DNA from: Negaprion brevirostris | Lineage: Eukaryota | Assembly: GCA_030324005.1 (NCBI GenBank) | Contig: JARDVH010000140.1 | Span: 24,312,175 to 24,376,174 of the forward strand | Length of the DNA stretch: 64,000 nt | Direction: 5' to 3' | In this document: positions 41,326 to 64,000 of the stretch, piece after piece | Numbering within the stretch: position 1 is the stretch's first letter | How the letters are laid out: each line of letters begins with the position of its first letter | The notes under the pieces: model-generated | Told to the model about the DNA's origin: nothing | Databases searched by the model: none | The model's input: only the letters and a program-made list of their open reading frames with translations | Translations under genes and position numbers: made by a program

Positions 41326-41613
41326 ATGGGGAATAGTTGCTCGTGTACCCACACTACCGTAACTCAAATTCACTTCTTGCAAGGTGATGGCTCTCCACCC
41401 TCGCAAAGAGAATATAAAGACCAGATACAGGTGGAAGTGAAAGCAGGGAGCAAACATGAAGTGGCAGAAGTAAAAGAACAATATGAAAAATGGAACATGC
41501 TCGCTGGAGAAGTCAAAGCACTACTCGACATTCGTCCAAGAGAAGGCAATGTGGAGGAGCTAATGTATCAACTGAATGAAACCTTTAAAGCTGACAGCCT
41601 GGTCATGACATCG
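41326..41613 (+). CDS. Putative first coding exon of the calpain (MGNSCSC...SLVMTS, 96 aa)
   Basis: ATG in tgaATGG context, 288-nt open frame with protein-like composition, donor TCG|GTAATC in phase 0 matching the next exon. Possible upstream acceptor at 41283-41284. No homology evidence. Confidence 0.65.
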
Positions 41614-44600
41614 GTAATCAGATTTATGTGTTATATATATTGCATACTGCCAAGCACTTTGATAAGCATGGGTCTGCTGCTTTTGTCAATTTACTTATAA
41701 TTTGTGCCCGAAATATTTTACTGAAATCTTCATTAGTAGCTCATTATTTTAATTGCATTGTACAATTTAGATGAAAAGAATCTTAAATGTACGTTTTAAA
41801 AAAAATTGAAGTTTGAGACTGGAATCTAAAATTCCTTGCCATTATAGTGTTAAGTGGGCTGCACCTTCCAGACTCTTTAATATTTACAAATCTGTAATGA
41901 GATTGGACTGCAGTATTTGCTTTGGTCCCATGTTGTGTTAGGAGCATCTATTTAATACTCAGAACATCTTCGTACTATCTTTAGAAAGTGAAATGTAATT
42001 GTACATTAATGTTCAGACTCAAAGGAATTCTGATGGAGATGGTGCTATTTTTACAATATGCTATCTTTGTCATACATCTGAATTTCAGAATCTTGTGAAA
42101 GAATACTTTTATGCCTTTGATTATAATATATAATTAAACAAGTGTTTATCTAACATTCCAGGCCCCACTTTATCTGTGCACTGATATTTGTGGGAAGTAG
42201 TACTGTCGTATTCAAAGTATTAAAATAAGGCTGTTGCTTAGTAACTAGTTTGATATTTTTCATTACGTCTGTTTGTTTAGCTTGTGAAAATGCTACATTT
42301 TTAATCCTTTCTGTCAGACCAATAGGGATGTTGATTGTTGCTTGGCAAATTAAGGGACCAAATGTGAATGACAATTTTGTATACAATTAAAAGGAGTCAA
42401 GACTGTGGTAACAAAAAAGATGATGTGATTAATGGGCATTTTAGACTCTGTCCAATTAAGTATTTTATGTAATTAGGTGGGGGGAACTGTGTAAACATAT
42501 CTTTCATCAGTCATACTGCAATTTACAAATAATTGTCATTTCATGCATGTTTGACTTTTAATATGCTGGATATCAGTATTAGTATTCATTTTGGATCAAT
42601 TCTGCTGCTGAATTCCTTTTTAATTAGATTTTTCTTCCTGCACTACAGAGTTCAAGACAAAAGTTTGACCATCTAATTCTATATTTTACTCTAAAACCGC
42701 CACCAACAGTAGTAGATGTCACACTGCAGACAACATAATCCCACTAAATATAGAAACGTAAGAAATAGGTGCAGGAGTAAGCCATTTGGTCCTTCAAGCC
42801 TGCACCACCATTCAATATGATCATGGCTGATCATGCACTTTGGGTATCCCACTCCTGCTTTTTCTCCATACCCCTTGATCCCTTTAGCCGCAAGGGCCAT
42901 GTCTGGTGCCTTCTTGAACATATCTAATGCATAATAACTTCATAGTTATACTCTACATCTGTGGGAATGGTAGCGTGTGCTCAAAATCTAGAAAGCAGGA
43001 CTTGCACTGGCAAGTTTCTGCTTTTTCCTCTGGGATTTTGCAGATTGGGGCTTGATGGGGATGATTGGTATGGTCTTACACCGAATATTCAAGCACAGAT
43101 GCTGCTTTTTGAGTTAAGAGAGAGCAGCGTCTCTCTCTTCTCGCCTTCGAAGTTGGAGACTGGAATCAGCCAGAAGATAAATTTCTTTCTTGGAAATTCT
43201 GCTGTCTGAGAGCTGCTGTTTTGAAAATTGCTGTCTGACCTCTATTAAAAAGCTGAAAATCCAGCATCATGTGAGCATACTTATTTTTGTGCTAACTAAT
43301 TCTTAAGAAGAGTGTATGTCCTGTGACCAAGATATCATCCAGGCACACTACTACCTGCGGTAACTCTTGGAGTATGTAAATCATGCCATTAATATTCAAA
43401 TCCATCCCACCGGCAAAACAGTGCCAGTAACTCTGAACACGGCATGAAACTGATCACGAACCCAATTTCTGGCCTTGCATGCAATCCTATCAGTTCACTG
43501 TGCTGATCGACTGGCACAGCAAGCTGGTAAGATTGTAGCCAAAATCGGCGTGAGTGGAGCCAATTTGGTTTAAACCTCCCCCTGCACCTTCCCTATTGGG
43601 CAAGCCTCCAATCGCCTAATAGGGGAGCTTGTGTTCAATGTGGCTCATGGGGAGATCTATTGATGATCTTCCGTGGTCCTCTTAACAAACTCCCAACATC
43701 TTATCAACCCCAGCTCTCCACATATCCTGCCACTGGCTCGAGCAGAAAATCCAACCCCATCTTTCAGGTTAATAGCCTTTCAATTGCACAGCATTTCCTG
43801 CTTTTTGTTCTTATTTCAGATTTTCAGCAGCCACAATATTTTACTTTTGGTATAGTTGGAGGAGGAATGCTGTTTGAATACGTGATCTGTTAGGTCATTA
43901 ATATTACCAGCAGCCATTCCTAGCTTGTAATAGTTACATGATACATATTATTTTTAATACACAGAAAAAGATATTATTCCATTGTAACTGTCAGACCGAT
44001 TTTATTTTTATTCAGAACTATCAGAAAATTATAGAAGAGCTTGAGCTGACTGGTAAACTCTGGGAAGACCCCGAATTTCTCCCTGAACCTTCATCATTAA
44101 CTTATGAGGACATAGCCCCAGAAGGAATCAAATGGATGCGCACCTTGGTAACTGTGCAATGATTTCATACCGATCAGCCTTAGATATAGCTAGCTCCACT
44201 TGAAACAAACAACTATCCTAAACTATTCTGGAAGTTTAAGTATCTATCGAGGATAAAATGATTGGGAATATATGCTACAGCATGAAAGGTAGATATTGTG
44301 AAAAAATGTAAGGATAGAAATTTGCTTTGGATAAACATGTGCAGGTTAGGTGGATTGGCCATGCTAAATTGCCCCTTACTGTTGGGGGACTAGCTAGAGT
44401 AAATGCATCGGGTTGTGGAGGTGGGGTTTGGGTGGGATTGTGGTTGCTGCAGATCGATGGGTCGAATGGCCTCCTTCTGCACTGTTGGGATTCTATGATT
44501 CTATAGATTCTATGATAATAGAGCAAAACAAGCAGTTATTATACAACAGCTCCCACATCCACTATATATATAGTTCCTTTAATAGTGGAAAATATCAGGA

Positions 44601-47600
44601 GGTGAGGACTAAAATCAGGAGACCCATTGCAGATTAAAAATTATTGCCCATGACTAATTTTGACTCTGTACTCTCTTACAAATGATTTAAAGCATTATTT
44701 CCCATGGACAATTTCAATGAGAAACAAGCAGCTCCAGCACAGCAAGCAGCACTTGCTGTAGTTTTACTTTAGTTTCTTAAAGCTGTCAGGGATAAGTGAC
44801 AGATTGTAACATAATCCAATAAGAGGAAAACCGAAAATGCTGGAACTTCACATTGAGTCAGCCAATCTGCAAAAGAGAAAAGTTAGGTTAGCATTTCAGG
44901 TGTGTTAATGAGAGTATATTTCAAGAAACATTTCCTTAAATCAAGATTCATTGATGTATAAAGCTATCTGCCTAAAATCTTAAGGCTACCATCCCTTCTC
45001 CACAGATGATGGCTGATCTATGACCATTTCCAGCATTTTCTCTTCAAATTCACATATATTTACTTAATAGCTGTACTTTCAATGAATTTCCTTAAAATCT
45101 GAGCTGATCTGTTTGTTTTTTTTTGTAAGCTAGAAGTTTAAGTATCACTATGTAGAGACATAGTGAGTAACTTGACCTGATAAATTATTGCAAAGGGAGC
45201 CTTGTCGTAGATTCTGCTTGCCATGATGTTAGAATTTTCAATGCTTATGTAACAAAATGCTGTCATGAGGAATTTTGTATTGAGGATGGTGTGCAAATTG
45301 AATAAACAATTAAAGAGGAAAGAATTTACAGGGCTTATGGGAAAAGAGCAAGGGAATGGCATGAAATAGGTAGTTCCACCAAAGAATTGGAACAGCTGTG
45401 ATGGGCCGAATGGCCTCTTTTGTGCAGTTTTGCTACATGATTCCATGAAATGCAAGTCGTTGATTAGAGTTGAAATGGTGAACAGGAGAAGAATACTCCA
45501 CTTTGTAAATTATTTATTTCTTTGTTCTTAGGATCTGCATGAAAATGCTTTCTTTGTAACAGATGGGGTTAGCAAAAGTGACATTATCCAGGGAGAGTTG
45601 GGAGACTGCTGGTTCTGGGCCTCTGTGGCTACAATAGCCAATTCCAGAAGACTGATTGAGTGGGTTATTCCAACTGGTGAGAATTTATATTTTTAAAATT
45701 GAGATTTCAGGCTACCATACTAAAGTTTTCTGTTCACAATGTTTAAAACAAAATATAGAGAAGCTTAAGCTTTGCAGATCTGTAGAGACATAGTGAGTAA
45801 CTTGACCTGATAAATTATTGCAAAGGGAGCCTTGTCGTATGATTCTGCTTGCCATGATGTTAGAATTTTCAATGCTTATGTAACAAAATGCTGTAATATT
45901 TTCCCACTTACGTCTCACCCAGGGTACACTGCACTTATATGCAGTGTCACTGACTTCTGATAATGGAACAAATCAAATTTAATTTTCAATGCATGGGATC
46001 TAGGATTCTTACCAACATTTTGGAGATCACATCCCATGATTCCATCCACATTAACCATGCATATCTATAAACTTTGGGGACTTTTAAAAACAGTCGCCCT
46101 TCGGGATGCAGCTAGAGGCTTTTAGATAGTCTTTGGAATTGAATAAACTTCACATTCAAGTCAACCTTGACATTTAGCTTATGATGTCTCCTGGGCTAGG
46201 TTTCAGCCTTGTATTTCAACTCAAAAAACTATTACATTTTCCAATTGAGGTTCAAATATGAATCTTATAACACTCCTTTATCTCTGCAGTATTTTTAATT
46301 AAAATTTTAATTCATTTTAAAGCCTGTTTTAAAATAGCACATATAGGAAATTAATAGTGAAACACCAAGGGTTGAATGTTTTGGACTCTTTAGAACATCG
46401 GGGAGGCAGGGGGGCTGGCAGAATTGAAGCAGAAGATGTTGGAAGAAGAGACTGATGTTTTCTTGCCATTGTGATATTTTGTTGGAAAAGAAGAAAGTTT
46501 GAATAGTCACCGTGCGGCCAATTGAACCACTTAAGCGCAAACTGGCAGCCTTCCCAGAGGCTCTGGAGGGGTAGGGTGGGGGCCTTTCTTTTTGGGCAAT
46601 CTAGGGCTTACAAAAGGGCTCCCAGGGCAATGACTAACCTGACAGCAACAGCATTGCCAATACTTCACAACCTATTCCCCCATCCCCAATCACATGGGCC
46701 TGACTGCCTGGTTCAGCTTCCTCCCGTACAGCCTTAACACTCTTAAGAGTGCCTGACAATTGAGGCATCCTTTTCCTGTATTGTTGCCTCCATCTGATTG
46801 GTCCAACAGCTCCTGAGGTGGGTTGCCATCCTTAATTAGTTGGTGGCCCAGTCAACGTCTGTTCATTGGCTGTCTCTGGCAAAATGTCAGCATGGGTCCT
46901 GCCGCCTGTTGAAGTGTGATTGTTTCTCACTTTCAGCTTTGGCAATGGGACTTGCTGGCAATCAGCAATCTGGTGATATTGCCTTGAAAAGATGGTGGTG
47001 GATGTTCTTCTTGAATTGCTGTTGTGTTAATGTTGTTAATGGGGAATCCCAGTGTTTGATTCAGCAACAATGAAATAATGGCAAAGTTGCTTAGAAAGGA
47101 ACTAGACGTTGATGGTGTTCCCTTTACATGCATATCTTTGTCTTCCTCTGGGACAGGTGACTTGGAGCTAGGAAATGCTGTTGAACTAAACTTGCAATGT
47201 TGCTGCAAAGCATTTTGTAATGAATGCAAAACAGTGGTAGAGAAAGTTTTGGTAGCAGCACCAATCAAGAATACTGTATTCACCTGGACTTTGTTAGTTG
47301 CTGCTTTTGGTTTATACCATTGGTAGGATTTTGCGGTCCTACCCGCTGCAAGACCAAAAATGTTTATCTGAGGTTAACAGATCTTTCAATAGTTTGTCAA
47401 ATTGTCTGTCCTGCCCCCAGTGATTTCTGTGGTGGGGTGGAGGGGGGGTGGTTTGTAATGGAGATGTGAGTGATCCGCCTGGCTATGATGGTGCATGATT
47501 TCAAGATTGATCGCCCACTGTTCCACATGGATTCCCAGCATTCTAATGTTAGACTTGTACTTAATCTATCCCATTAGCAATGAAGTGGAACCACACTGTG

Positions 47601-50600
47601 CAATGGAGGGTGGCAATTTAAGGATGTCAAAATTCAGGAAATGCATCCAACACAGCTAGCAGAGGGAAGAAAATGAATAGTTGTAATAAAAGATGTCCTC
47701 AGAATTGGTGACAGATCAGATTAAGTGATAGGTCTAGAGAAATGTGGATGATATTTACTTTTACCTCTAATCAGTGCATTTCTAATTTTTCTTTCAAGTG
47801 TTCACCTGCAGTTTATTTATTGATGACACAATTCGTCATTATTGCAATTTTGGTTCTGTTATAATGAGGACCTTTAGATCTCTTTCTCTGTCTCTTTCCA
47901 GTCAATTATCTCCTGTTCTTTCCTTTTCTGAAGAGATTGATTCATGATGGAGTTGTTCCACAAGCATGCTTCAGTAGCTTGATTAGCGGAACATCATTCA
48001 TGTGTTGTTCTTGATAGTGAGTATTGAAAAAATATCTACTGGACCTTCACTCAGTGCTCACACTTAAATTTCCAACAAGGATCACTAGGGCAATTAAGAA
48101 TGGGAAGGTTGGCTAACCTTTACCCCTCCCTAAGCCAGAAATTGTAACGGCACCATCCACATGAAATTAATTAACTTGAGACCAAGCGACTGGGAGAACC
48201 ATGTAGATAGAAGGGTTGTCTTAACCTTTACCTCTTTGAACCCAGATATAGCTATGCAATGGGTACTTATCAATAAATTAACAAGCAGAAACCAGCATGC
48301 ATTCCAATATTTATATGTAGACAGCTTTCATTAAGGATAAAAATTAGATAAATGTTTTTCCGAAAAGGCCGCAGCAAAGCTGGTTTGAGATGTTTATCAA
48401 GTACAGAATCACCCCCAGAGTTCAAGGAGAAAACCAAACAAGGAAGAGTTCTTGATGCTGGAAAAGGTAGTTACTAAAGCGTTGCTTTAGTGCATTCAGG
48501 AATCACTGGTACCAAAATGAAAAGTGCTGGTTTGGATTGGTGCCAGCAATGTAACAAAATATCATCATCCCATTTCACTGAGTTTATACCCAATAAAATA
48601 TTCATACTGTTGAATTCATGGCAACAGCAGATAACATGATTACCTGTGAATTATATCATGCTGTTTAAATAGGCCAAATGAAATAAGAAAAATGCTGATT
48701 AGGAATTCTGTCAACAAGCGTTTCAAATCACAACTTATGCATAAATCTCTCACTCGCGGATGTGCAGTAGACTAACATTCAATTTGTCTTTTGAACACAA
48801 ATATGAGTGCATGCAATTTATTAATCATTAACACCATGGTAACCATATGGAACCACTGTAGGAGGCCATTCTGCCCATCACACCTATGTCAGCTTGCAGA
48901 AAAAGCAATCTGCTCAGTCCCTTTCCTCTGCTCTTTCCCCAAACCTTCATTTTTGAAATATTTATCTGCCTCCCTTGTAAAATCTTGCATGGATTCTGCC
49001 TCTATTGCTGTTTCTGATGGGGCATTCTGTACCCCCAAATCCCTCTTTCTAAAATATAAACATCAATCAATTCTTCTATTCAGCCTTCACTCGTTTGGTA
49101 ATCTTAATTTGAAGTGCCGACTCACTGACAAGTGGGAATGCTTTGTTTCAAATTTACTTCATCGGCCACTTCCTAATTTTGATCATCGTAATCAAATCTT
49201 ATCTAACTCTGTTCTGGAGAAAAATGCTTGAGTTTCTCTAGTCTCTTCCCATAAATAATTCTCCCACAGGATATCTTCTGTACCATTTCCAATGTCTTGA
49301 CATCCTTCCCAAAACAAGGTACCTAAAACTAAACATCATAATCCTACTAAGTACAAGCTTAGTATTCTCTCTTTTTTTTTAACCCTTTGCCCTTGTTTAA
49401 GATTACTCTATGACTTACCATAATTCCCTTTACAACTTATATTCAATATATCATTTGAAGTGAGCTGCTTTGAAGATACAGATTGTCTGAGAATAAACAT
49501 ATCTTATATTTGTGGCATGTATATGGTGGCACAGTGGTTAGCATTGCTTCCTCACAGCGCCAGGGAGTTGAGTTCAATTCCAGCCTTAGGTAGCTGTCTG
49601 TGTGGAGTGTGTAAATTCTCCTCATGTCTGCGTGGGTTTCCTCCAGGTGGTCCAGTTTCCTCCCAAAGCCTAAAGATGTGCAGGTTAGGTTGATTGGCCA
49701 TGGGTTACGAGGATAGGGCCTGTGTGGGATTGTTATCAATGCGGACTCAATGGGCCGAATGGCCTCTGCACTATCGANNNNNNNNNNCGAGTATTCTTCT
49801 GAGATGCTAGGCTTCATTTCTGGAGATGCAGGCAGAGAGTGGGTGGTTGATTTTTCTGGAGCATTATGACTCTGATAACAGGACAATATGAGGGTCCTGA
49901 CCCTGTTATGATCAGGTGAGGAGTGAACTGGCTCCCTCTATTCAACCTCCTTGGTTTGTCACAATAAAGGTTTAGGTTTCTTTTTAATGAAGATATGCCT
50001 TTTCCAAATCAAAATGTATTTATATATTTATGCAGTAAGCAATGAGGAGCAAATCCAACGAGGCTTGTTTGGGTCAAAGAAAGAATGAGTTTAATAATCA
50101 CTAAACCGTTATTTTGGACCGAATCTTACAGCTCATTAAAGAGATTTTGTGCACATGAGAATCACATGAGCCTTTGGCGTGTTCCCTCTGATTCGCCCAT
50201 TCCGCACCAACTTAATCCCTGCAATCAATAGAAGCTCTATATAAATGGCTCCCCCCCACTCGTTCCGGAACAACTGCAGGGGATGGCAGCCAAGAAGTCT
50301 GCACTTCACTTTTAGGATGGAGGCCTCACCAGGATGCTGGATGGATTGGAGCAAAGGCGGCCACTCGAGCTGGCCTCTGAGGAGGAAGAGTGTATCTAAA
50401 CTGCTGTGAAGTGAGGGCAGCAGATAGATGTGAAAATCCCAAGACACACTGTGATTTGCCCAAGTCTCAAGCGAGTAATCAATGATCCCTCCATCTCCCC
50501 TGTAATGCACTGATGCCATCTCCCTTCTCTTGCAGGCTTACCAGCTGAACAGTCTAGCTCACCCTCACTCCCCCTGGACCCACTAGACAAGCAGCTATGA

Positions 50601-53600
50601 GGGGGACTTCTCCTGCCCCACCATTGAAAACGCGTCACCACTATCACCCACACCTCGTACCAGCGCAGATACTCGCACTTCTATGGGATCACTAAGTAAA
50701 CAAGCTTCTGGGCCACACACTGGTGAGGACCTCACAGTTGAAGATCCACAGCAGTTGGAGGCAGGGATGTCCCAGGAAATTGGCACACAGAAGAGTGTCA
50801 GAGCTCAGGACTCTGCTGAGCCTCTGGCTAATGACATGTCCCTGGGCCCTGTTGCCCCACAGCTGCTGGAGTGCAGAGGCATCAGGAAGGGATGACAGCA
50901 TCCCTCCTCCGACTGCAAGGCCAACTGGAGGAGTCCCATTGTCTTCTGTCAGGCGAATTGGTGCCATCACTGCATCACACCAAGACCAACACTGTCAGGG
51001 TGGCGTCTGTAGTGGAGACCTTGGCATAGCATGACCACTCGATGAGCAGGAGATGTCCACATCACGACTCAGCTCATGACCCTGTCTGAGGGCATGAGCT
51101 CCATGATGCAGGGCTTTGACTGCATGGTGCAGGCACTGGTGGGAATCGACAAGTGTCAGTGCCCGAAGACGGTGGAGTTCTGGCTCTCACTCCAGCTGCC
51201 CTCCTCTATTCCATGGAGGAGCACAGGGAGCCGCCCCAGGACCCCAAACAGAAAAGGATTCAAGAAGGCAGCTCACCGCCACCTTCTCAAGGGCATCTAG
51301 GGATGGGCAATAAATGCTGGCCAGCCAGTGATGCCCATGTGCCATGAATGAACAAAAAAAAAGGATTGGCAGGAATACCGCCCGGGCCACTCCTGCCAAG
51401 GGACCCTAGGCATCTCCAGCCCATCTGACATTCTCCCTTCCCTGTGAGCAACACATTTCCAGCCCCTGAAACTGAGGACAGCAAATATCCATGCTGCCCG
51501 AAAGCGGGCCTGGACTCTCCAGTTCCCGGCTCACTCCCCACGGGTCACCCACCAAGGTCATCTCAGGCAGTCCTTGCCATGTGTGGAAGTCAGCAGGCCA
51601 CTTCAACCTTAACTGTGGATCCTGAGGATACACCTAGATGTAGCGTGAGGATGAGGAAAATTAAGAAACTGTAGGTACTAAGTAGGCACAGGTAAATATG
51701 GGCACTAGTGTAGATGGGTCACCATTGTATTGAATGCTTGTCATTCAAATTCACTTTGTTCACCCACATAGCTTCCACCCCTGCCTGTTCTTGTCACCAA
51801 GCTTGGGGAAGCACTGTGCTCACCTGCTGCCTTGTCCCCGTGGAGTGTGAGAATGGCAGTGCATTGTCCCTCCCACACTGACAGGAAGGTTGCAGTAGTG
51901 GGGCACAGCTGCTGGTAGCCCCTCCCCATCCCCGAGTCCATCCCTCAATCCCCATCTGTAAAAGGGTGAGCCCCCTTTACTCCCCCACCAAAGCTCAACC
52001 CCTTTTATATCTGGCATGGGCACTGGTGAGGCCGCAGCTGGAGTACTGTGTGCAGTTTTGGTTGCCGCACTTACGCAAGGATATTTTGGCCTTGNNNNNN
52101 NNNNNNNNNNNNNNNNNNNNNNNNNNNNNNNNNNNNNNNNNNNNNNNNNNNNNNNNNNNNNNNNNNNNNNNNNNNNNNNNNNNNNNNNNNNNNNTATTGA
52201 ATGGCGGGGCAGGCTCGAAGGGCTCGATGGCCTACTCCTGCTCCTATTTCTTATGTTCTTATGTTCTTATGATCACATGGCCTTAGTCCTGTTATGCAGT
52301 TGAAGTACTGTTGCAGAGGTAAAAGGAATTATTAGGAGCAATTAGGAGTAAATTGCTAAAGGAAATTTTTCAGATAGTAAGGGGAGTGTCTAACAAATAT
52401 ATCCTAATGCTCACAGGCCAGTATATTACTGGGAAAACTCCTTACTATGGAATCTTTCGTTTCCGATTCTGGCAATTTGGAAAATGGGTGGAAATTCTGG
52501 TGGATGATTATTTGCCAACAAGAGATGGACAACTTATTTATGCCAGATCAGAAGCTGACAATGAATTCTGGCCGTCGCTTTTTGAAAAGGCCTTTGCAAA
52601 GTAAGTGTAATCAATTCCTTGTCAGATTTATGTTTCACTGTTACATAACATGCCTGTACCAAACACACTGTGGTGTGGCGATATGAACAGCTGATATTCT
52701 GCTGAACAGGATCCTCTATTTATACTAATACCTGGAGAAAATGTTCAACAATTTCACTGTTTGATTAATATTGTGTTTGATATATCATATATCCATATCT
52801 ATTTTCCTGTCATCTAGTTGGATTCCTATATCCATGCTTACAGTAGAAATTTCCCATGTAAATGCACCATTCTGCAATTAAGAGTTCCTATCACTAAGGC
52901 AGCACTGAGCTGAGGGGTGAGGTTCTATGTATCATAAAAGGAAGTCCTGCTTACAGCAACATCATAGAATTGTAGAATGGTTACAGCACAGAAGGAGGCC
53001 ATTCAGCCACTCATGGCTATGCTAGCTAATAGCACGAGGAACTCAGCTAGTTGCAGTCCTCTGTCTTTTCTCTGAAATCTTGCAATTTCTTTCTCTCCAG
53101 GTTCAATTTCCTTTTGAAAGCCATTACTGGATGTGCCTTCATCACACTCTAAGTCCCAACCACTCCCTGTGTAAAATGATTTTTCCTCATTCCATCTTTG
53201 ATTCTTTTGCCATTCACCTTAATGAATCAATGTCCTCTGGTTCTCAAACCTGTTGCCAATGTGAAGAGGTTTTCCCTGTCTACTCTGTCTATATCCCTCA
53301 TGATTTTGAAAATTTCTATAAAATCTCCCCCCAACTTCTGTTTTCTCTGGAGACCAATTCAATTTCTCCAATCTATCTTTAAAATTTAAAGTGCTGCTTA
53401 CTTGGCATGTGACCAAGATATCTGGGCGATAACAATTTGGAAACAAGGGCCCATGAGTTAGTTATCGGGGTGAGTAGACTGTGAGTGTAGCTCTGCTCTC
53501 AAACAAGGTTATAGATTTTAGTTTTAGAATAAGCTAAGCGCAGGACACATCTCTTTCAAGCAGGATTCAGTTGAAATTCTGTGCATTGGCTACAAAGAAT

Positions 53601-56600
53601 TAAAACCTCTTGTTAATTGTAAGACTCTTGGCAATGAGTTGGACTTCTAGGAAAAGCCAAGCAGGGAGAGAGAGTTTTAGATGCAAAACTCCAAAGTTAA
53701 GGAATATTAAAACTAGAAAGGTTTTGACCTGAAATGGCTCTGCTCAAGAAGCTAGTGATGCCACTGTGAGCTGGAAGTCTCCAAATATGGGACCTTGGAG
53801 GAGATTAAATGGGGCAACCTTTCTAGTAGAAAGCCCAAGAAATCTCAGTTTTCACTTGAAACTTTGAAACAGTACTGAGACCAGGTTTAATCTTCCAATT
53901 TCTGATAAGTGTCTGACTTGTGTTTTTGAGGTGTAAGTCAAATGAGTGCAGAAGGAAAGTTGAGCTGGGGGAGTTCTCCAGTCGTATCAGATGGCCAGTC
54001 GAAATCTTGTTGGCCTACAGAAAAGAGTGTTGGCCAAAAATTGGTTTGATGACCCATTTACTGGCCCCCTGCCATTAACCTGTCTCTTCAGCAGGAAATA
54101 CACAAGGTGGGCTTTGATGCTGGCAATGACCAGCCTGGACCTGGTGTGCTGGACCCTGAGGGTCCAGGGAGCAACACCAGCTCGCCAGCCAGCAAATGCA
54201 AGAGGCGTTCATCCCTCCACCACTGAAATAACAACACAATGCAGATATGAGGGTGACCCAAATCAAACTCCCTCAACCCCCTTTCACCCTCAGAACCCCA
54301 CTCAGTCTCTTCCCCCCCAGACCCTCATTCAGGGCCCTTTCAGGCCATGCACCATGGCAGTGTCAATAATGCACTGCCCCTTGGCACCCTGGTAATACAC
54401 CTGCCAGGCCAGGCTGCAAAGGAAGAGTCCCTCAAGCCTACCAGAGCTGGTTGGCTGGGGGCAAGGTGTTGATTTCATTCCTCTCCCCTGAGATTGGGAG
54501 ACATGGTTGGATGGCCCTTTCTAGCCCTGGCAGACCTGAAGATCAGCCCCGGCATGATGATTTCAGGTAGCTCTGTGATTAATAACTACATTCCTGCCTG
54601 TCAACTGTGAAACTTTGAAGTGATCTAGTCAATTTAATGTCCATGCCCCCTCAACAGCTGGAAGACTCTTAAATTACAGCAGACTTCATTCTGCAGCAGA
54701 GACTTCTCTTTCTCTCTGTCAGAAGCTGAGCTGAGACCCCTTTGAAATCTTCTGACAGAGAGATGTCAATTTCACTGTGGATGGGTGGGGGGGGGGGGTT
54801 TCCTTCTCCGCAGCTGTTCACTCAACTCCAATGTATTCCCACTGCTTTTATTTGAAATCTCTGAGCCTTCCTAGAAAGCTGAGACCTTTGAAAACTTTTG
54901 ATCTCTTTCAATTTCATAGCACATACTATGAAATAGGCTTTAATTCATAGCTTAATGGATTTCTACTCAGCCTTCAGTCATCTTATTTACCTTTCCCTTC
55001 ACACTTGAATGCATCTCAAGTACCCCCATTGTTCCTAACCACAATGTTTCCAAGACAAACCTGATTGATAGCTGTGGTTTCTTCAAAGGGAATAAATGGT
55101 TTCACTTCCTATTTTGAAGACAAATATCTGTGTTAGCAACATTGTCATTTGTATTCACATTCTTTGATTTTTTTGTGTTGTAAAATTATTGAATTTTGTG
55201 TTGTAAAATTATTTGAATTTTCAAAAGAAAAAGAATATAAAGAAAAATGGTGCAAGTCTTTGCTTTAATTTAGATTAAATAGTATAAAATGAAAGCAGAA
55301 AATGGTGGGAGAACACTGAATAAGTCTGTTCGCATCTGTGGAGAAAAAAAACAGTTAATGTTTTGTGTCCATGTGACTTCTTTCAAGCTGAAGAATTCAG
55401 ATCTTACGGATGGAATCTCTACAGTGCAGAAGGAGGCAATTCAGACCATTGAGCCTGCACCAACAACAATCCCACACATGCCCTAATCCTGTAACGCCAT
55501 GCATTTACCCTGCTACTCCCCGTCATCAGTAAGGGTCAATTCAGCATAGCCAATCAACCTAACTCAGACATCTTTGGACTGTGGGAGGAAAGCAGGGCAG
55601 CCAGGGGAAACCCACACAGATATAGGGAGAATGTGCAAGCTCCATACAGACATCACCTAAGGCTGGAATCGAACCGGGTCCCTGGCGCTGTGAAGCAGCC
55701 ACCATGCCACTCTGTTTCTCTCTCCACAGATGCTCCTGGACCCCCTGAGAGTTCTTCCAACATTTTCTGTCTTTTAATTTCAGATTTCCAGCATCCACAG
55801 TATGTTGCTTTTAACACGTGATTTTATTTTGCCTCTCCATTGTCTTCTCAACCATCAAATCAGTATTCAACGATTGTCCTGTGCAGTTATTTGCCTACTT
55901 CTTTTGCATCATCATTGGATTTTACCTGCAGGTTGCACGGGTCATATAAGGCGATTGAAGGAGGGTGGACACTGGATGCTCTGACAGACCTCACTGGCGG
56001 TGTTGGTGAGATCTACAGGTTTTCAGAATTTGCAGATAGGTACGAGGAACTGTACAACCATCTTGCTGCTGCTTCTCGGAAGAATGCTTTGATGGCCTGT
56101 GGAACAGGAAAGGTTAGACCGGTGATATTCTGTAGAAGACTCATACGAAACGTTAACTCGGTTTCTCTCTCCACAGATGTTGTCAGATCTGCTGAGATTT
56201 TCCAGCATTTTCTGTTAAAGCAAGTTGAAGTTGATCTTCTTCCTAATATTGCTAATTACTTTTTGGAGAGGACCTAATGCTGGCCACAATAAGAGTGGAC
56301 AGGTTTACAAAGGGATGTAAAATAAGCAACACGGAATTGGTTGCTTATTAAACATCTTGCTAGATTATCCATTCCATTGATGTTAGGTGCATTGACTATG
56401 CTAAATTCGCCCTCAATGTACCTGAACAGGTGCCGGAGTATGGTGAGTACTTATTCACGGTAAGTTCATTGCAGTGTTATTGTAAGCCTACTTGTAACAC
56501 TATAATTAAACTTCAATATACAATGAGAGTGCTGTGAAGAGGCACATTTTTGCTCAGCCAGAATCTAATCTACTGGAACTAAGCAATAATAACATAAAAT

Positions 56601-59600
56601 TATTGCATTCATCTTTTTATTTAATCCCAACATCAACATTTCCGGCAAGAATTTGTGTTCTAATAATGCATTTCCAAATGCTGCTTGTAATTTAACAAGT
56701 ACTTCTTGCTGGCAAGGACCCAGCTTGCCATCGTGCTTATTGACAAAGTGTGGGACTCTTCATCGAGATTTTTCCCTTGTGTTTGCTTGGCCTGGGCTGC
56801 CACTGGACAAAGCTCTCTACTGACAGATTAAACCTGAAATATTGGTGCATAATGTAACTGTCAAGGCCAAAGCTAAGTATTTGAGCATAACTCCATGAAC
56901 AATAGCTGAACTGTTGTCATATTTTTTGCAGCACTTTTGACTTACGACTTTCTCCACCTAAATTTTATTCAGGAAGATGAAGGATATGAAAAGCAAGATG
57001 GTTTAGTAGCTGGCCATGCCTATAGTGTTACTGCAGTAAGAAAGGTAAACTGTCAGAACAAAAAAACTGCCATTGTTTCTTATTGCAGAATTAAGTTCCA
57101 CTCCTTTTTATATTCCCCACTCATTAGCCTGTTTCAAGGAATGTGTCACTTTCTTTGACAATGTAATTCTGCATATTTTTGTAAAATAAGTACGCAATAG
57201 ATCATTATATATTGCTCATGGTAAGTCCTTTCATCCTATGAGTTGTCTATCTCTCAGTCGGTGACTGAGTTTCTGTGACACTTCCTGTGTGAGAATGAGA
57301 ATTTTCTCACGGTATCGTTGTGTAATGTCCTGTGGATTCATTTGTCTCTGTCTTCTTCTCCCATCAATGCCTCTCTCTATTCACTTGTATTTCTCCTTCT
57401 CTGCGCCCTGATATTTGACACTATTGATTTTTGTCTGTCTTGAACCTAAGGTATCTCTCCTTTCTTGTCCGTTTCAGCTAATCTCTTTGTCTTTTCATAT
57501 GGGGCGGCACGGTGGCACAGTGGTTAGCACTGCTGCCACACAGCGCCAGGGACCCAGGTTCAATTCTGGTTTCGGTTCATTGCACATTCTTCCGGCGTCT
57601 GCATGGGTTTCCTCCAGGTGCTCTGGTTTCCTCCCACCATCCAAAGATATGCAGGTTAGGTTGATTGGCTATGCTAAATTGACCCTGGTGTCGAGGGATA
57701 AATATGTTCAGTTTCAGGAATATGGCTGCAGGTGGGATTGTGGTCGGTACAGACTTGGTGGGCCGAATGGCCTCCTTCTGTACTGTAGAATCTATGATTC
57801 TAATTTTTATCCCCACTGATATGAGTTGATCTCTTTTCTCTTTCTGTTGTTTGTTTCTTTGTTACCACCTGGCACTCTCTTTCTATGCCCCATTTTCTCT
57901 ACTTATACACAATATTTCAACGTAGTCCCAATTTTAAAATTTTTGTTCCCATCCCCCTACTCAAAATATTTCTTTTTCTCCTTGGCTTGACTTCATTCTA
58001 CCTGCAAAATCTCAGTGTTACCCAGGGGATGTGGAGATGGGGAAGGCCACACACAATACACCCACTCTAATGGGACTCAACCAATTAGAGTCTGACGTCA
58101 CTCCAAATTGTCTGCTGATTCCAAGCCTATCAGCAAATGCAGAGCTATCAGGCTCTGCTTGGTCTCCCAGAACTGTGGCTGGCACACCCTCCCCCCCTCC
58201 CCCGTTGGTCGGGGCCCTGTGCTTAGACACAGTGTGTTTCATTGTAATTCTGCCTCTAGGTGCTGGGCAGGGAGGGATGACGGAGAACAATATTTAGATG
58301 GAGTTGTGGAGCCAAAGGGAAAGACACAGGGGGGCGATTTTACCAAAGAATGAGTGTGAAAACAAGAGAGAATTATGCCCATTTTTGGGCGAGCTCCCAG
58401 ACACTTTCTTATGTCATTTAGAAAGAAAAATGAGACAAAGTGTGATTCTCACCAGTAGGGGGAGTGGATGGAGTCTACTTATGCTGGGAACTCTGCTGCA
58501 GACTGCTAAAGGGTCCTTTTGCTCATATGCCCTGCTCTCCCAGTGTATTGTGTGCAAGAGTACATAATGCATTGGGAATCCGTCTCGGCTGTGCACCTCT
58601 CCAGACATTACACCCCACCCCTATGTTTGCCCCACCCCAATCACGGCCCCCTGATCACCCCCCCAATTTCACGCCCCCGCATTGCTCCCCACTTGATAAA
58701 GCACCTGGTCACTTCCTCAGGACTCCTTGCAATGCTTCTTAATGAGTAAGTTACCTTTTGAGATGTAGTCGCTCGTGTCAGGTTGGCACGTGGAAGACAA
58801 TTGCCCAACAATTTGCTTTTATATGACAATATACTGCAGCACGTTGCAGGGTCATAAACAATTGAGATGACGATCTCAGATCTGTCCTCAGGCCAACAGA
58901 TCTGAAGTATCAGCCAATGCTAATAATTGATGGCTGACACATTGAACATACCAATTGCCAAAGAGGCTTTGTATAACCTTGCACGCAATGGTGTTTGCCA
59001 CTCACATTTCCCTGAATTCAGTACATCAAGGACAAAAAAGCCCTCGGTTATTTGAGCCTGACGACGTGGAAATCCAATGCCCAAAGCTTTGCAATAGTTT
59101 GGGTGAAGTATGCATTAGTGATCTCTCTGTTAGTTGGCATGTGACACTCACGTGTAGTCTGACTTGTATGACTTAGCCTCTCCTTCCCAAAGGCAGTGGC
59201 AAGACCCTGACCTGGGTTTGGTTATACTGACTTGAGAAACTTATTTGATGATGGATCGCTAATAGAAGATGCTCCCTCGAGTTATAAAGCATTGGAACTT
59301 GTTACTTTTAGGTGACATCTGGTTTTGATTGTTTTTGATGTGTCCTCAATCCTTTTATCTTTACAACCCATGAATCACCCAATTTTACTGGTTTAGTTTA
59401 TAACAGTTTATCACACTATATTAAAAACAATCTGATCTGGTTATATGGGTGAGGCCCAAGCATCAGCTGGAATGGCATCTACATGTGTGTCTGTGCCTTT
59501 CTCCACCTTTCTCTTGTCTCACAGCAGAATGAAGGGTTACCTGCTCATCTTTCAGTCTTAACACAATAAAGGCAACTACAATCACAGTCTATCAAAACAT

Positions 59601-61559
59601 AAAGCAACTTCTAAATATCAAAACAAGCCAGCCAGCCTAGCTTTACAGAGATTGGGTGCCCATTTTAAAGGATGCCCCGATCTCAGTGCTGAGAAATAGG
59701 AAACCCTTCCCCTCACAATACACCTGGTGAAGCCCGCTGACAAGGAGAGCACCCCTAATGCCTCAGCATAGAGGTGCATCCTCCCCCATCACTGGAAGAA
59801 CAGATCGTCCCTCCTACACCGTGCAGGCATGAGGGTGACCTGACTCCCCCTCCTCCCAGGCAGAACCCTCACTTCTCCCCGCCCCCCACAAGACAGACAC
59901 TCTAAGGTGGGGACTCACCTCCTCAAACCACCCTCAATCTCCCTTCAGGCACCGCCCCTTGGCAGTGCCAATCTTGCATTGCCCTCTGGCATCCTGGCAG
60001 TGATGCTCTGATGTGATGCGTCTGAGGGGAGTGCATAGAGATAAATCCTGCACCCATGTGCTCCTCTGCTGCTGCCAGGCTGCACAGGGAGGGTTTCCAA
60101 AAGATCTGGTAATTCGGTGGACTTGAATTAGGATGAAGGGGTTGAATTTTGGGGACTCTTCGCAGGATGGTGGTCTAGCGGCTGCACTTGTCCCTGTTGC
60201 CCTGGCAAAGGTGGTAACTTCTAGAATGGTGATTTCATTAATGTGAAGGATTTTCAGTAATGTCTTTGTCCTTTAAAACATTGGGAGTGTCCTGGTCACT
60301 TTGATATCCATGCCCCATGTATAGCTGGATACTTTCAAAATCACTGCAGCACTCCATTTCACACTAGGGATTGGCTTAGGTGTTAAATAACCTCTTAAAA
60401 GTATCTGATAGAAAAGTCAGTTTTACCGGTAGATCCCCTTGTTTTCTCTCATGAGGCTCAGATGCCTGGAAATTTCTTTGAATAACAGCATGAACTAAGT
60501 TTCACTGGGCAGTTCCCCTTTTAACATTGAAAGGGTATTATCGAGTGTCTGGGTCCTTTGATGTATTTTGATTGACAGGTTGGATCACTTACCCGCTAGC
60601 CAGGAGCTTTTTTAAATTTTTCTTTCCCTTCATGGTTGAATGTTTCTCATGTGCTTTGAAAATATTTTGGTTAGAAAGAGGAACCGAAATACCATAATTG
60701 ATCCAAATATGTGCGTGTTAGATTGATTGGCCAAGCTAAATTGACCCTTAGTATCAGCAGGATTAGCAGGGTAAATATGTGGGGTTATAGGAATAGAGTG
60801 TGGGTGGGATTGCTGTTGGTGCAGGCTCAATGGGACGAATGGCCTTCTTTGGGGGGGGGTGTGGAGAGGGAGNNNNNNNNNNNNNNNNNNNNNNNNNNNN
60901 NNNNNNNNNNNNNNNNNNNNNNNNNGGTTATTTAAATAATTTATGCAGCTGTGCACCAATTTCTGGCACAGAGCTGATGGCTCTTGAAATCTGGCTGCCA
61001 GACGGAGGCCTAGGCATCCAGCGGGTAGCCCACGAAACGGCTTCTGCCTGAGTATCCCAGCCTGCTGTGCTACAAAATCAGTGCAGTGGGCTGGGAGAAT
61101 TGTCCTGGGCTGTTTATAAACATTGGAGTTGGGAACTACGTTGGCAGCAGGCCATCGGGATTAGACTATAAGATACAGGAGCAGAATTAGACCACTTGGC
61201 CCATTGAGTCTGCTCCGCGATTCCCAGTTAGAGTGAACAAAACTGAAGAATCCTGGCCATAGTGTTTTCTGTGATGTTTCTCTCGGCCAGAATATATGTT
61301 AATAACCTTCAAGGAACACTTTTTAAAATTTCTACAGCTAAATTCTTGACTTTGTCTTTTTTGTTGTACAGCTTTGAATCCTCTCCAGCTCCCATTGATG
61401 TTGATATAAAGGATCTGAATTCTGGAGATACTGACTGTACTTCTTAAAACTTTGTTTTCTATAGCTGACCACTCCAAAAGGCAGAGTCCCCCTTGTTCGG
61501 ATTCTGAATCCATGGGGATCGGGGCACAACATGGAATGGACAGGTGACTGGAGCGATGA
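41326..61559 (+). CDS. Calpain-family (peptidase C2, CysPc) cysteine protease, 5' part; 7 exons, continues beyond window
   Basis: In-phase GT-AG exons give WEDPEF, QGELGDCWF (catalytic Cys), [58 protein letters not shown] (His) and NPWG...EWTGDWSD (Asn). No stops or frameshifts. The paralog cannot be assigned by eye. Confidence 0.93.
42750..42925 (-). mobile_element. CR1 3' tail
   Basis: aagaaataggtgcaggagtaagccatt...ccccttgatccctttag. Confidence 0.75.
44016..44147 (+). CDS. Calpain exon (NYQKIIEEL...LWEDPEF...IKWMRTL)
   Basis: 132 nt, ttcag/GTAACT, start of the CysPc domain. Confidence 0.9.
44335..44515 (+). mobile_element. HE1-like SINE 3' part
   Basis: gtgcaggttaggtggattggccatgctaaattgcccc...(gattctat)n. 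Confidence 0.8.
45151..45263 (+). repeat. Direct repeat copy 1 (113 bp)
   Basis: Identical to 45781-45894 except for one 1-bp indel. Confidence 0.95.
45532..45676 (+). CDS. Calpain exon with catalytic Cys (DLHENAFF...IIQGELGDCWFWAS...VIPT)
   Basis: 145 nt, cttag/GTGAGA; read by hand, absent from the ORF track. Confidence 0.93.
45781..45894 (+). repeat. Direct repeat copy 2 (114 bp)
   Basis: tgtagagacatagtgagtaacttgacctg...gtaacaaaatgctgt. Confidence 0.95.
49524..49772 (+). mobile_element. HE1-like SINE
   Basis: tggtggcacagtggttagcattgcttcctcacagcgccaggga head. Confidence 0.85.
50115..51960 (+). mobile_element. GC-rich decayed transposon remnant, possibly the Myb/SANT-like region of a Harbinger element
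   Basis: Abrupt GC-rich block with many short shifting ORFs; weak resemblance near 50290-50360 to Harbinger Myb-like N-termini; family call tentative. Confidence 0.4.
51975..52272 (+). mobile_element. CR1 fragment spanning a gap
   Basis: [25 protein letters not shown] motif and (ttcttatg)n tail. Confidence 0.85.
52417..52600 (+). CDS. Calpain exon ([21 protein letters not shown]...EKAFAK)
   Basis: 184 nt, cacag/GTAAGT, phase 1 to 2. Confidence 0.93.
52960..53375 (-). mobile_element. CR1/L2-type LINE 3' fragment
   Basis: Tail acagcacagaaggaggccattcagcc and decayed C-terminal coding region. Confidence 0.7.
55410..55710 (-). mobile_element. HE1-like SINE nested in a Penelope-like palindrome (55289-55812)
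   Basis: ggaatcgaaccgggtccctggcgctgtgaagcagc head in reverse; flanked by inverted arms. Confidence 0.8.
55932..56112 (+). CDS. Calpain exon (LHGSYKAIEGG...ALMACGTGK)
   Basis: 181 nt, tgcag/GTTAGA, phase 2 to 0. Confidence 0.92.
56973..57044 (+). CDS. Calpain exon with catalytic His ([24 protein letters not shown])
   Basis: 72 nt, ttcag/GTAAAC. Confidence 0.93.
57503..57800 (+). mobile_element. HE1-like SINE, near full length
   Basis: ggcggcacggtggcacagtggttagcactgctgccacacagcgccagggacccaggttcaattc (Pol III A/B boxes) through atctatgattc. Confidence 0.9.
61465..61559 (+). CDS. Calpain exon with catalytic Asn (LTTPKGRVPLVRILNPWGSGHNMEWTGDWSD)
   Basis: 95 nt, tatag/GTAAGT; read by hand. Confidence 0.92.
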
Positions 61560-62633
61560 GTAAGTGTTAGCCTTGCAGCAATTGTATTGAGCTAAAGGAT
61601 GAGAAAGCTCATCAAGACTCTCTCTCAAAATTACTCGTTTCAAATTGGCAAATCCAGACACTTCCTCTTAAGCACTCACTTAACAATAAGCAATGTTGAA
61701 GCGATTAGTCATGGAATTGCCTGAGTTTAAACCAAGACCAGGATATCAGGATAATGCATTAAACTAATGTGCATTTAGCAGCGTTGCCTAACAATGCCAA
61801 GAATGATGAACTATGCACGTACCACCCACCCTGAGCCTGCGTGTGCACGAGAAGTCTGTGGTTTGTCGGGACTTGGAGTTCCTGACCTCCAATTTAAGTT
61901 TGGGTTTCGTAAAATGTGCTTCAACCACCCATATCAAAATGATTCTCACCTTCGAGATTCTAACAGAAACTGCTGTACCTCTGTGTTGTACCATCAGTCA
62001 ATTGCCTCTGCTGCCTCCTTGGCAATTGACATGTCGGTGGGAGACAGCGGGAGCAGAGAAAGTTTCCAGGGTCTCACCAATGGTGCATTGTCCAGATTAG
62101 CCATTGCACCTACGTGTCAGTAATGTAATGACTGAAGACCAATGCCTGGTTTTTGACGAGCAGGGACATTCAGGGGTGGGTATAAAGTCACCATCCAATT
62201 AAGGACACTGGGTGCACCCCTGGAAGCTGAAGGAACAGTATGAGCTTCTTCAGCAATGACAAAGTAACAGCTCCACTCTCAGAAGTGGGAGCTGCTGATG
62301 TAGGAAGAGAGGGAGAACGACAGGCTGCCTCAAAATGGGGAAAAGCCTCTGGAGAAGTTTTTAAATGGCAAAATTGCTTAGAAACCACAACTAGTAGATG
62401 GTCATCATGAATGTGAGGATGGTGGCAGGTGAGGTGAGGAAGGGGGGGTGCAGGGGCTGGGCTGGAAGTGGAGGTGGGGGCACATTCAACAAGGCAGTCA
62501 GTGGCGGGCAGTACTAGGATGGGAGACAGGGTTGGGAAAATCAAGAGTTTATCTGCTTCCAGTTCCATCGCCATGGCCTTTCGAAAATTTGGCCCATTTT
62601 TAATATTTCAGTCTTCCCTCTGATCACTAAACT

Positions 62634-62860
62634 AAAAGCAAAAAACTATGAATGCTGGAAGTCTGAAATAAATACAGAGAATGCTGGAAAAACTCAGCAG
62701 GTCTGGCAGCATCTGGAGAGAGAGAAGCTGAGTTAACGTTTCAAAATTGTATGACTTTTCAACTCCCTGGGTGAGTCATTTGGACCAAAACATGTTAACT
62801 CAGTTTCTGTCTCCACACAGGCTGCCAGACCTGCTGAGGTATAGCCAGAATTTTCTGTTT
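62634..62860. repeat. Palindromic Penelope-like terminus pair
   Basis: ctcagcaggtctggcagc...gagttaacgtt inverted to gttaactcag...gctgccagacctgctgag. Confidence 0.75.
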
Positions 62861-63439
62861 CTACCTCTGACCACTAGATGGCTGTATCCACCTTAACATT
62901 GCCTGTGTCATGGAACAGGCGGGTAGCACATCAGCTGCACCTTATGAATCTAGTTCGATTCTTTTAAAAGCATGGAAAACCCATCATTGTGAGCAATGGG
63001 AACCAATCTGTGCAACCAGGGAAATATCTGTCCATTAACATACTTCCCTTTTAAAAAAAACTTTTCTGAACTGAACTCAACATTCAAATAAACACAAAAT
63101 TGCACCTGGATGTAATTCTATTATTGTGCAATTAAACACTGGCCCTGACTTTCCTCCTCACCTGCCTGGCCTGGGTGTTGGTCTCAGATGGAATGTATAT
63201 CTGGGTGCAGGACACCTCCCACTTTATTGAAATGCTCTTCTGGCGTCGAAATCCTTGGACAATGCATTGGCAATTTAACTTCAAAGCCTCCATTCCTTCT
63301 TCCTTTATGGTAAACCTGGAAACTCTCACGTTCCAAATGGTCCCGTCAAGAGCCTTCTAGTCATGTATCTTCCTTCTGGTTGACAGTCTTGCACTTTTAC
63401 TGCTGAAACGGAGTAATCTTTGTTAAATTTGGGCATCTT

Positions 63440-63650
63440 GAGTCCAAAGATGTGCGACTTAGGTGGATTGACCAGGGTAAATCGCCCCTTTGTGTTCCAA
63501 GATATATTGGTTAGATGGGTTAGCCATGGTAAATGTGTAGCGTTAGGGAGATAGGGTGGGGGAGAGATAAGATACTCTATCGGAGAGTTGATGCAAACTC
63601 ATTGGGCCGAATGGTCTCCTGTGCTGTTGGGATTCTATGGTTCTATGACT
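63440..63650 (+). mobile_element. HE1-like SINE 3' part
   Basis: gtccaaagatgtgcgacttaggtggattg...gggccgaatggtctcctgtgctg; a similar fragment lies at 60710-60850. Confidence 0.75.
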
Positions 63651-64000
63651 TTTGTAAATTGACTTGAGATTTATGATCACTATATAAAAACATAATGATG
63701 AGACTTTGTGTACCCGAATACCATAGCTGCGCTTGTGCACACTTGCACTGAGCTTATGCGAACATTCATAAGTCATAAATTATGGCTTATTCCACCTGTA
63801 ATAATACTGTGCCCACTCTTGAACTGCAAGAAGCGACACTAGCCCTCCCAGCTTATTCACACACATCATATTATTTCTGTTTTAAACATTGCATTTTAAA
63901 GAGAAAAAGAAGGCTGGCATTCATGTAATGCTGTTCACAACCTTAGGCTGTCTGAAAATTCTTTGCAGCCAATGAAATGCTTTTCTCCAAGTATTCCATA

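Follow-up and report, generated by a model that had tools for sequence, protein, structure and literature searches.

The closest described relatives of the gene reported here are the invertebrate calpains that Hastings et al. (2017; PMC5650170) placed in a "bilaterian Truncated" family, which includes AplTRUNC1 and members from molluscs, horseshoe crab, sea urchin and amphioxus and was loosely tied to CAPN10 (bootstrap 36). The vertebrates sampled in that work were human, frog, zebrafish and Fugu (CAPN17 only), and the terms myristoyl, palmit, acyl, linker and shark do not appear in its main text. Calpain-10 has been traced to early metazoans, and one amphioxus protein was noted to resemble annelid and oyster sequences most (PMC4631099). 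PMC4043111 covers PEF-bearing calpains only, and the accessible portions of PMC13664112 and PMC11387712 describe no vertebrate Truncated-type gene. Here we report a calpain gene of the shark Negaprion brevirostris, found in a stretch of 64,000 nucleotides (the window, G000:C140:24312175-24376174) whose best protein matches come from sharks and rays. The data make it quite likely that this is an intact, single-copy gene for a calpain of 589 amino acids, that it is a vertically inherited vertebrate member of the Truncated family, and that CAPN10 is a fast-evolving relative. An earlier note on this DNA had raised the possibility of an unrecognised lineage, which goes too far, as the invertebrate members already make up the family around AplTRUNC1. 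The vertebrate member is apparently unnamed; no paper naming it was found in a literature search that most subscription journals lay outside.

Phylogenetic placement and distribution

The placement draws on three trees with the linker columns kept in, one built with FastTree (177 rows) and two with IQ-TREE under LG+C20 (57 and 30 rows). For the FastTree set, 19 of 283 proteins were dropped as short or internally duplicated and the remaining 264 were thinned to 169; the rebuilt shark genes of scaffolds C99, C115 and C128 and the first rebuild from C163 were used in this run only. The FastTree outgroup was a SOL-type core of the same genome, whereas both IQ-TREE trees were drawn with Tra calpains as the root. 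Tree labels come from database names, and approximately unbiased (AU) tests were run on 30 of the 57 rows. On 57 rows the vertebrate orthologs are monophyletic (100/100), and together with 15 invertebrate PEF-less calpains and five CAPN10 proteins they form a wider clade (99/99). The same wider clade was recovered on 30 rows (100/99) and on 177 rows (99), and it stands apart from classical and Tra calpains in all three trees. One of its members, P0058 (XP_005105403.1), is AplTRUNC1 itself; the window calpain groups with it and with protostome and deuterostome relatives, CAPN10 lying inside as well. Union with the vertebrate classical calpains (p 0.0005), with Tra calpains, that is CAPN5/6 (p 0.00085), and with all classical calpains (p 0.0012) was rejected by the AU test. 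The 100/100 vertebrate clade and these rejections bear out the proposal of an old calpain lineage outside the named vertebrate clades sampled, although the wider clade takes in CAPN10 as well, and the AU test does not reject CAPN10 as its sister (p 0.074). CAPN10 forms a 100/100 clade of its own that includes shark members, and the window calpain is not nested in it (57 rows); both genes are present in the same genome, the window calpain on C140 and CAPN10 on C163. In crickets (P0246, P0272; Anabrus, Gryllus), divergent Truncated-clade members occur that lack the linker loop motif described below, and in some trees these two proteins and the second amphioxus protein, P0150, lean towards CAPN10.

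Protein matches, including the best 120 of 3235 hits of a survey that scored 8000 candidates, gave orthologs with 60-93% identity in sharks, rays, chimaera, bichir, sturgeon, paddlefish, coelacanth and lungfish. Several of them are already RefSeq gene models labelled "calpain-A-like", a label derived from insect CalpA/B that is misleading for vertebrate Truncated-type genes. Identity to the shark protein is 84% in sevengill shark, 75% in skate, 71% in coelacanth, 68% in lungfish and 60% in sturgeon; it is 42-43% for amphioxus and brachiopod proteins and 32-37% for CAPN3/5/8/9/12. The next matches among those best 120 hits, at about 40%, were PEF-less calpains of amphioxus, bryozoan, annelids, brachiopod, molluscs, hemichordate, spiders, centipede and sea star, with insect and oyster CalpA/B mixed in lower down. 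No teleost- or tetrapod-named protein was present in these 120 annotated-protein hits, and the lone amphibian match to the window groups among classical calpains in the tree. The gene was apparently lost at least twice, in the teleost line and in the tetrapod line. The suggestion that it was kept in cartilaginous fish and lost in mammals is consistent with its absence among annotated mammal proteins but was too narrow, since it also occurs in bichir, sturgeon, paddlefish, coelacanth and lungfish, and the apparent loss spans teleosts and all tetrapods. Separate acquisition, offered as the alternative, found no support, as orthologs occur in both gnathostome lines and their branching broadly follows the species. 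The gene would place one more calpain in the jawed-vertebrate ancestor and add two lineage losses.

Gene model and intron positions

Seven calpain exons with AG/GT borders lie on the plus strand at 41326-61559, with successive intron phases 0, 0, 1, 2, 0, 0 and 2, in agreement with the exons and phases of the earlier note. The triad motifs from which it read an intact CysPc domain (QGELGDCWF, GHAYS and NPWG) start at 45589, 57012 and 61507. When the C-terminal exons were sought in 120 kb beyond the window, as the note had advised, using the sevengill shark and skate orthologs as queries, one CBSW domain followed by a stop was found, with PEF and C2 domains absent. The features of the locus are as follows (window numbering unless a scaffold is given).

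41326..41613, plus strand: exon 1, with the start codon and a 96-residue N-terminal arm predicted to be largely disordered
41326..41346, plus strand: MGxxCSC start, with a myristoylation-type Gly2 (Ser at 6) and Cys5 and Cys7 as likely palmitoylation sites
44016..44147, plus strand: exon 2, where the protease core begins
45532..45676, plus strand: exon 3, with catalytic Cys166 (codon 45607-45609) and Ca-site Asp157, followed by a phase-1 intron unseen in any paralog
52417..52600, plus strand: exon 4, with Ca-site Glu238 and without an intron before FWQ
55932..56112, plus strand: exon 5, with AG/GT borders
56973..57044, plus strand: exon 6, with catalytic His325 (codon 57015-57017)
61465..61559, plus strand: exon 7, with catalytic Asn349 (codon 61507-61509), Trp351 and Ca-site Glu358 and Asp365
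61560..64000, plus strand: intron 7, which leaves the window at its 3' edge
G000:C193:117742416-117742750, minus strand: exons 8-9, with the end of the core, Asp388/Glu390 and most of the DxDxDGxxD loop
71272-71400, 75294-75427 and 76262-76507 (window numbering continued), plus strand: exons 10-12, with the CBSW domain and the stop
about 2500-35600, minus strand: presumed PRPF8, head to head with the calpain, with many open-frame exons
G000:C140:24396106-24431400, minus strand: TLC-domain gene, whose end lies about 7.4 kb beyond the stop of the calpain

The twelve joined exons encode 589 amino acids without an internal stop, and all 11 introns are GT-AG. The gene is not a chance reading, because exon 4 is 77-93% identical to orthologs, with E-values down to 5e-31; the exon 1 product is identical to the skate ortholog P0006 at 50 of 90 residues. 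One contig of 261 nucleotides from run X1 (depth 3.6) covers exactly exon 4 (52417-52600) with two differences, and its ends depart from the genome at the exon borders as in a spliced transcript, which is a weak hint given that the RNA status of the run was guessed by the tool. No exon-exon joint was seen among the 15 contigs listed of about 7,900 from four runs, where matches were swamped by repeats. A near-perfect direct repeat of 116 nucleotides flanks the exon with the catalytic Cys (45151-45266 and 45781-45897, 630 nucleotides apart); its copies differ by one extra base and one mismatch and may reflect a real duplication or an assembly slip.

Residues ~355-408 are missing at the calpain locus, and exons 8-9, which encode them, were located on C193 by a genome-wide search that found a single copy. 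The C193 piece is probably a misplaced contig, that is, an assembly error. It is 8.8 kb long and lies inside a 50-kb stretch holding 22 runs of N, and three more such runs fall within the exon 7-10 interval at the calpain locus. The alternative is that exons 8-9 were truly relocated to another chromosome and that the gene is broken in N. brevirostris. These exons are indeed not found between exons 7 and 10, the C193 piece has no unique sequence in common with the introns of the locus, and at 8.8 kb it exceeds the 935-N gap there. However, exons 8-9 fit exons 7 and 10 exactly in phase (2, 2, 1), no exon contains a stop, and conservation relative to the ortholog P0005 (24/26 and 25/29 identical residues) is like that of the neighbouring exons (29/31 and 37/41), which together with the single copy and the many runs of N makes a true relocation improbable.

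The calpain lies between PRPF8 and a TLC-domain gene on a 46-Mb scaffold. The identity of the former was recognised from its translated exons, and the latter, which ESM Atlas names to the TLC-domain family only, we take to be probably TLCD2. Rat and human gene lists (PMC4501283, PMC5876250) place Prpf8 next to Tlcd2 and show no calpain in between, which fits loss in place provided that the TLC gene is TLCD2. Synteny was not shown past the TLC gene, as the nearest Beach-domain match on the scaffold is far off (C140:1.99 Mb).

Introns of the paralogs were mapped in the same genome with a purpose-made spliced aligner. As a control, the aligner recovered the introns of the window gene between the acceptor of exon 2 and the donor of exon 7, with one donor three codons off and exon 1 mis-spliced. 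The rebuilt genes of C185, C182, C25a, C115, C99 and C128 were partly wrong, having exons outside the fetched DNA or in gaps, and only junctions in well-matching sequence were counted. A phase-1 intron between QGxLG and DCW was found in three of five classical-type paralogs (C25b, C99 and C182; the other two are uncovered there) and a phase-0 intron before FW in all five, whereas a phase-0 intron before VIP is present in three of three CAPN5/6-type paralogs and also in CAPN10. The window calpain has none of these and carries its own phase-1 intron four codons past the VIP site. The earlier note had drawn both contrasts, with the classical calpains and with CAPN5/6/10, and they hold on the same-genome paralogs. 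An intron between the His and Asn motifs had been listed as a further peculiarity, and it is absent in two well-rebuilt CAPN5/6-type genes; however, it is not distinctive of the window calpain, because the classical paralogs have an intron at the same codon (4/4 rebuilt there). Altogether, 7 of the 11 introns are at ancient or classical calpain positions (one within a codon). The phase-1 intron in the linker between core and CBSW has a counterpart only in CAPN10, with linkers 4 residues different in length, and classical and CAPN5/6 paralogs have no intron in this linker.

Several observations concern the other calpains of this genome. The CAPN10 gene has a stop codon in its first CBSW exon (G000:C163 about 25152400) where white shark has His, which is either a sequencing error or a true break. 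Three Tra-type (CAPN5/6-like) genes are present (C97:100.18-100.22 Mb, C193:128.93-129.06 Mb and C185:4.88-4.91 Mb). Mammalian CAPN6 lacks the catalytic Cys, and the Tra-type gene on C193 retains it. Further divergent classical-type genes lie at G000:C182:3.69 Mb and C25:7.47 Mb, and a weak calpain-like match (G000:C132:122496377-122496517) falls within an open frame of 621 amino acids. Shark calpains of the P0216 cluster are labelled "calpain-12" in RefSeq; CAPN12, 13 and 17 were reported as not found in sharks (PMC4043111).

Protein architecture and proposed working

Pfam found Peptidase_C2 and Calpain_III, and nothing else, in all 10 clade proteins searched (Peptidase_C2 E 7e-104 on P0005). 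The CysPc domain with Cys166, His325 and Asn349 identifies a member of the calpain superfamily (C2), and the plan of a catalytic domain and one CBSW, with a stop shortly after the CBSW end, is that of the Truncated family. The PEF domain that marks classical calpains and the C2 domain that marks Tra calpains are absent from the gene model and, by Pfam, from the orthologs, on which Pfam likewise found neither the N-terminal zinc fingers and SOL domain of SOL (CAPN15) nor the MIT and two CBSW domains of PalB (CAPN7). Two tandem CBSW domains mark CAPN10; the window calpain has one, to which shark CAPN10 shows two matches. Calpain-1 has two core Ca2+ sites with six Asp/Glu residues (PMC4057710, Table 3); the shark protein and nearly all clade members retain all six, with Lys in place of Arg104, whereas three of them are replaced in CAPN10. 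An AlphaFold model of the skate ortholog (predicted local distance difference test, pLDDT, 73; predicted template modelling score 0.74) consists of a low-confidence arm of 88 residues (pLDDT under 50 for residues 1-88) followed by a calpain core and CBSW fold. The best solved-structure matches were calpain-1/2 (Foldseek 3bow, E 4.7e-48), and no Truncated-family structure was among the 19 PDB hits. ESM Atlas yielded nothing beyond generic calpain clusters.

Two motifs, an N-terminal acylation-type start and a candidate calcium loop in the linker, are family-wide and nearly absent from other calpains. MG followed by a Cys at positions 3-8, in line with the myristoylation and palmitoylation consensus, is found in 5 of the 8 vertebrate members and 17 of the 30 invertebrate ones, compared to 1 of 121 other calpains and none of 11 CAPN10 proteins. 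The linker motif Dx[DN]xDG occurs in 7/8 vertebrate and 22/30 invertebrate members, in 0/12 CAPN10 proteins and in 1/134 others; with an acid after two further residues, the numbers are 7/8, 18/30, 0 and 0. Related sequences are among those counted, and the numbers do not represent independent events. In the skate model the linker motif forms a loop between the strands at 397-404 and 419-427 (pLDDT 70-77), so that the Dx[DN]xDG sequence lies, as expected for such motifs, between elements of regular structure.

These residues and motifs were observed directly; the biochemical steps that follow are what we infer from them. The enzyme would be a Ca2+-activated cysteine protease that makes limited cuts. 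Very likely, the two core Ca2+ sites trigger its activity: Ca2+ bound there would align the catalytic triad. Classical calpains dimerize with the small subunit through the PEF domain, and as this domain is absent, the window calpain very probably does not need a small subunit. N-myristoyl and S-palmitoyl groups would probably tether it to the inner membrane face; acylated calpains have been reported in Plasmodium (PMC2746569), and CAPN5 has been reported to be S-acylated (bioRxiv 10.1101/2022.01.25.477766). The linker DxDxDGxxD loop might be a third Ca2+ site and, instead of a PEF domain, couple the core to the CBSW, a suggestion about which we are slightly more doubtful than confident; Ca2+ binding there, by analogy to the motif family of PMC3123361, could tune activation. 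More tentatively still, the gene may represent a further vertebrate family beyond CAPN1-17 that preserves the ancestral design behind CAPN10 and follows a mode of regulation so far undescribed in calpains, with an N-terminal lipid anchor instead of the C2 domain and an integrin-type Ca2+ loop in the linker instead of the PEF domain, conserved in animals from molluscs and arthropods to lungfish.

Alternative origins and comparison with known calpains

The window calpain could be a slow-evolving sister of CAPN10, both having come from one Truncated-type gene that was duplicated early in vertebrates, after which CAPN10 doubled its CBSW and lost Ca2+ ligands. This explanation is compatible with most of what is proposed here and differs in timing and naming. 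The two proteins share the 99/99 clade and their pairing is tolerated by the AU test (p 0.074), but the pair was never joined in free trees, and CAPN10 leans instead to the second amphioxus protein (84/63 on 30 rows; Shimodaira-Hasegawa support 93 in another tree; open on 57 rows). Additionally, identity to shark CAPN10 is 28%, compared to 41% to AplTRUNC1 for the skate ortholog. Both have a phase-1 linker intron that classical and CAPN5/6 paralogs lack, though with linkers differing by 4 residues a common position is not proven, and CAPN10 has the phase-0 rather than the phase-1 VIP intron and no introns after the His motif or in GEFW. CAPN10 also lacks the loop (0/12), the acylation start (0/11) and three Ca2+ ligands. 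This explanation seems rather unlikely.

An origin from a vertebrate classical calpain (or CAPN5/6) that was stripped of its PEF (or C2) domain and had its introns remodelled was largely refuted and is very improbable. It would account for the seven intron positions in common with classical calpains, including the one after the His motif, and for calpain-1/2 being the best solved-structure matches, though the 19 PDB hits hold no Truncated structure. However, the unions it requires were rejected (AU p 0.0005, 0.00085 and 0.0012), and the linker and N-terminal signatures are common to invertebrate Truncated proteins. Horizontal acquisition from an invertebrate, or contamination, is hardly credible: the best non-ortholog matches are invertebrate (best 120 of 3235 hits), but orthologs occur in both gnathostome lines with branching broadly as the species, the intron positions are ancient, and vertebrate genes neighbour the calpain on its 46-Mb scaffold.

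Several caveats weigh against the reading of the gene as an intact, vertically inherited vertebrate member of the Truncated family. The AU test does not reject union with CAPN10, the stem of the vertebrate group is long (0.84), the trees do not establish the group as sister to the amphioxus or tunicate members, and amphioxus has two members. CAPN1, 11, 13, 14 and 17, CAPN7 (PalB), AplAty and "Truncated L" are without confirmed names in the trees. Blast alone does not separate the families, as bee CalpA/B also shows 40% identity. The complete frame depends on a join across two scaffolds. The teleost and tetrapod absence refers to annotated proteins rather than genomes, with gar, bowfin, lamprey and hagfish unsampled, and the TLC-domain gene is named no further than its family. 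The RefSeq ortholog models P0004 and P0005 start without MG, and the exact loop motif is missing in paddlefish and in the main amphioxus member. Lastly, Dx[DN]xDG motifs of this type are described as mostly extracellular (PMC3123361), which makes a cytosolic instance both less likely and more interesting.

The data strengthen the link between CAPN10 and the Truncated calpains and offer two testable motifs, the acylation-type start and the linker calcium loop. The latter resembles the integrin-type "calcium blade" of PMC3123361 in its motif, in the acid after two positions and in forming a loop between strands; it differs in that it is not in a propeller and its binding is predicted, and calpains are not mentioned in that paper. 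Tra calpains (CAPN5/6) likewise have no PEF, and their QG-CW and FRF-W segments are not interrupted by an intron, but the window calpain lacks their C2 domain, has another intron phase at VIP and is kept apart from them by the AU test (p 0.00085). With classical calpains and insect CalpA/B it shares the core and CBSW fold, the triad, the core Ca sites and 7 intron positions; compared to CAPN1/2/3/8/9/11/12/13/14/17 it is without PEF and without the QGxLG, FW and GGCRN introns, and the AU test rejects their union. CAPN10 ("Atypical V") is similar in the lack of PEF and C2, in belonging to the same wider clade and in the phase-1 intron of the linker region, and different in its two CBSW domains and its other intron set, in having neither the loop nor the acylation start, and in lacking three core Ca ligands. 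The AplTRUNC1 family agrees in having the core and one CBSW only, the linker loop, an MG(C) start and a place in the same 99/99 clade, with 41% identity between AplTRUNC1 and the skate ortholog; as published, however, that family holds invertebrate members only, whereas the window gene belongs to a vertebrate.

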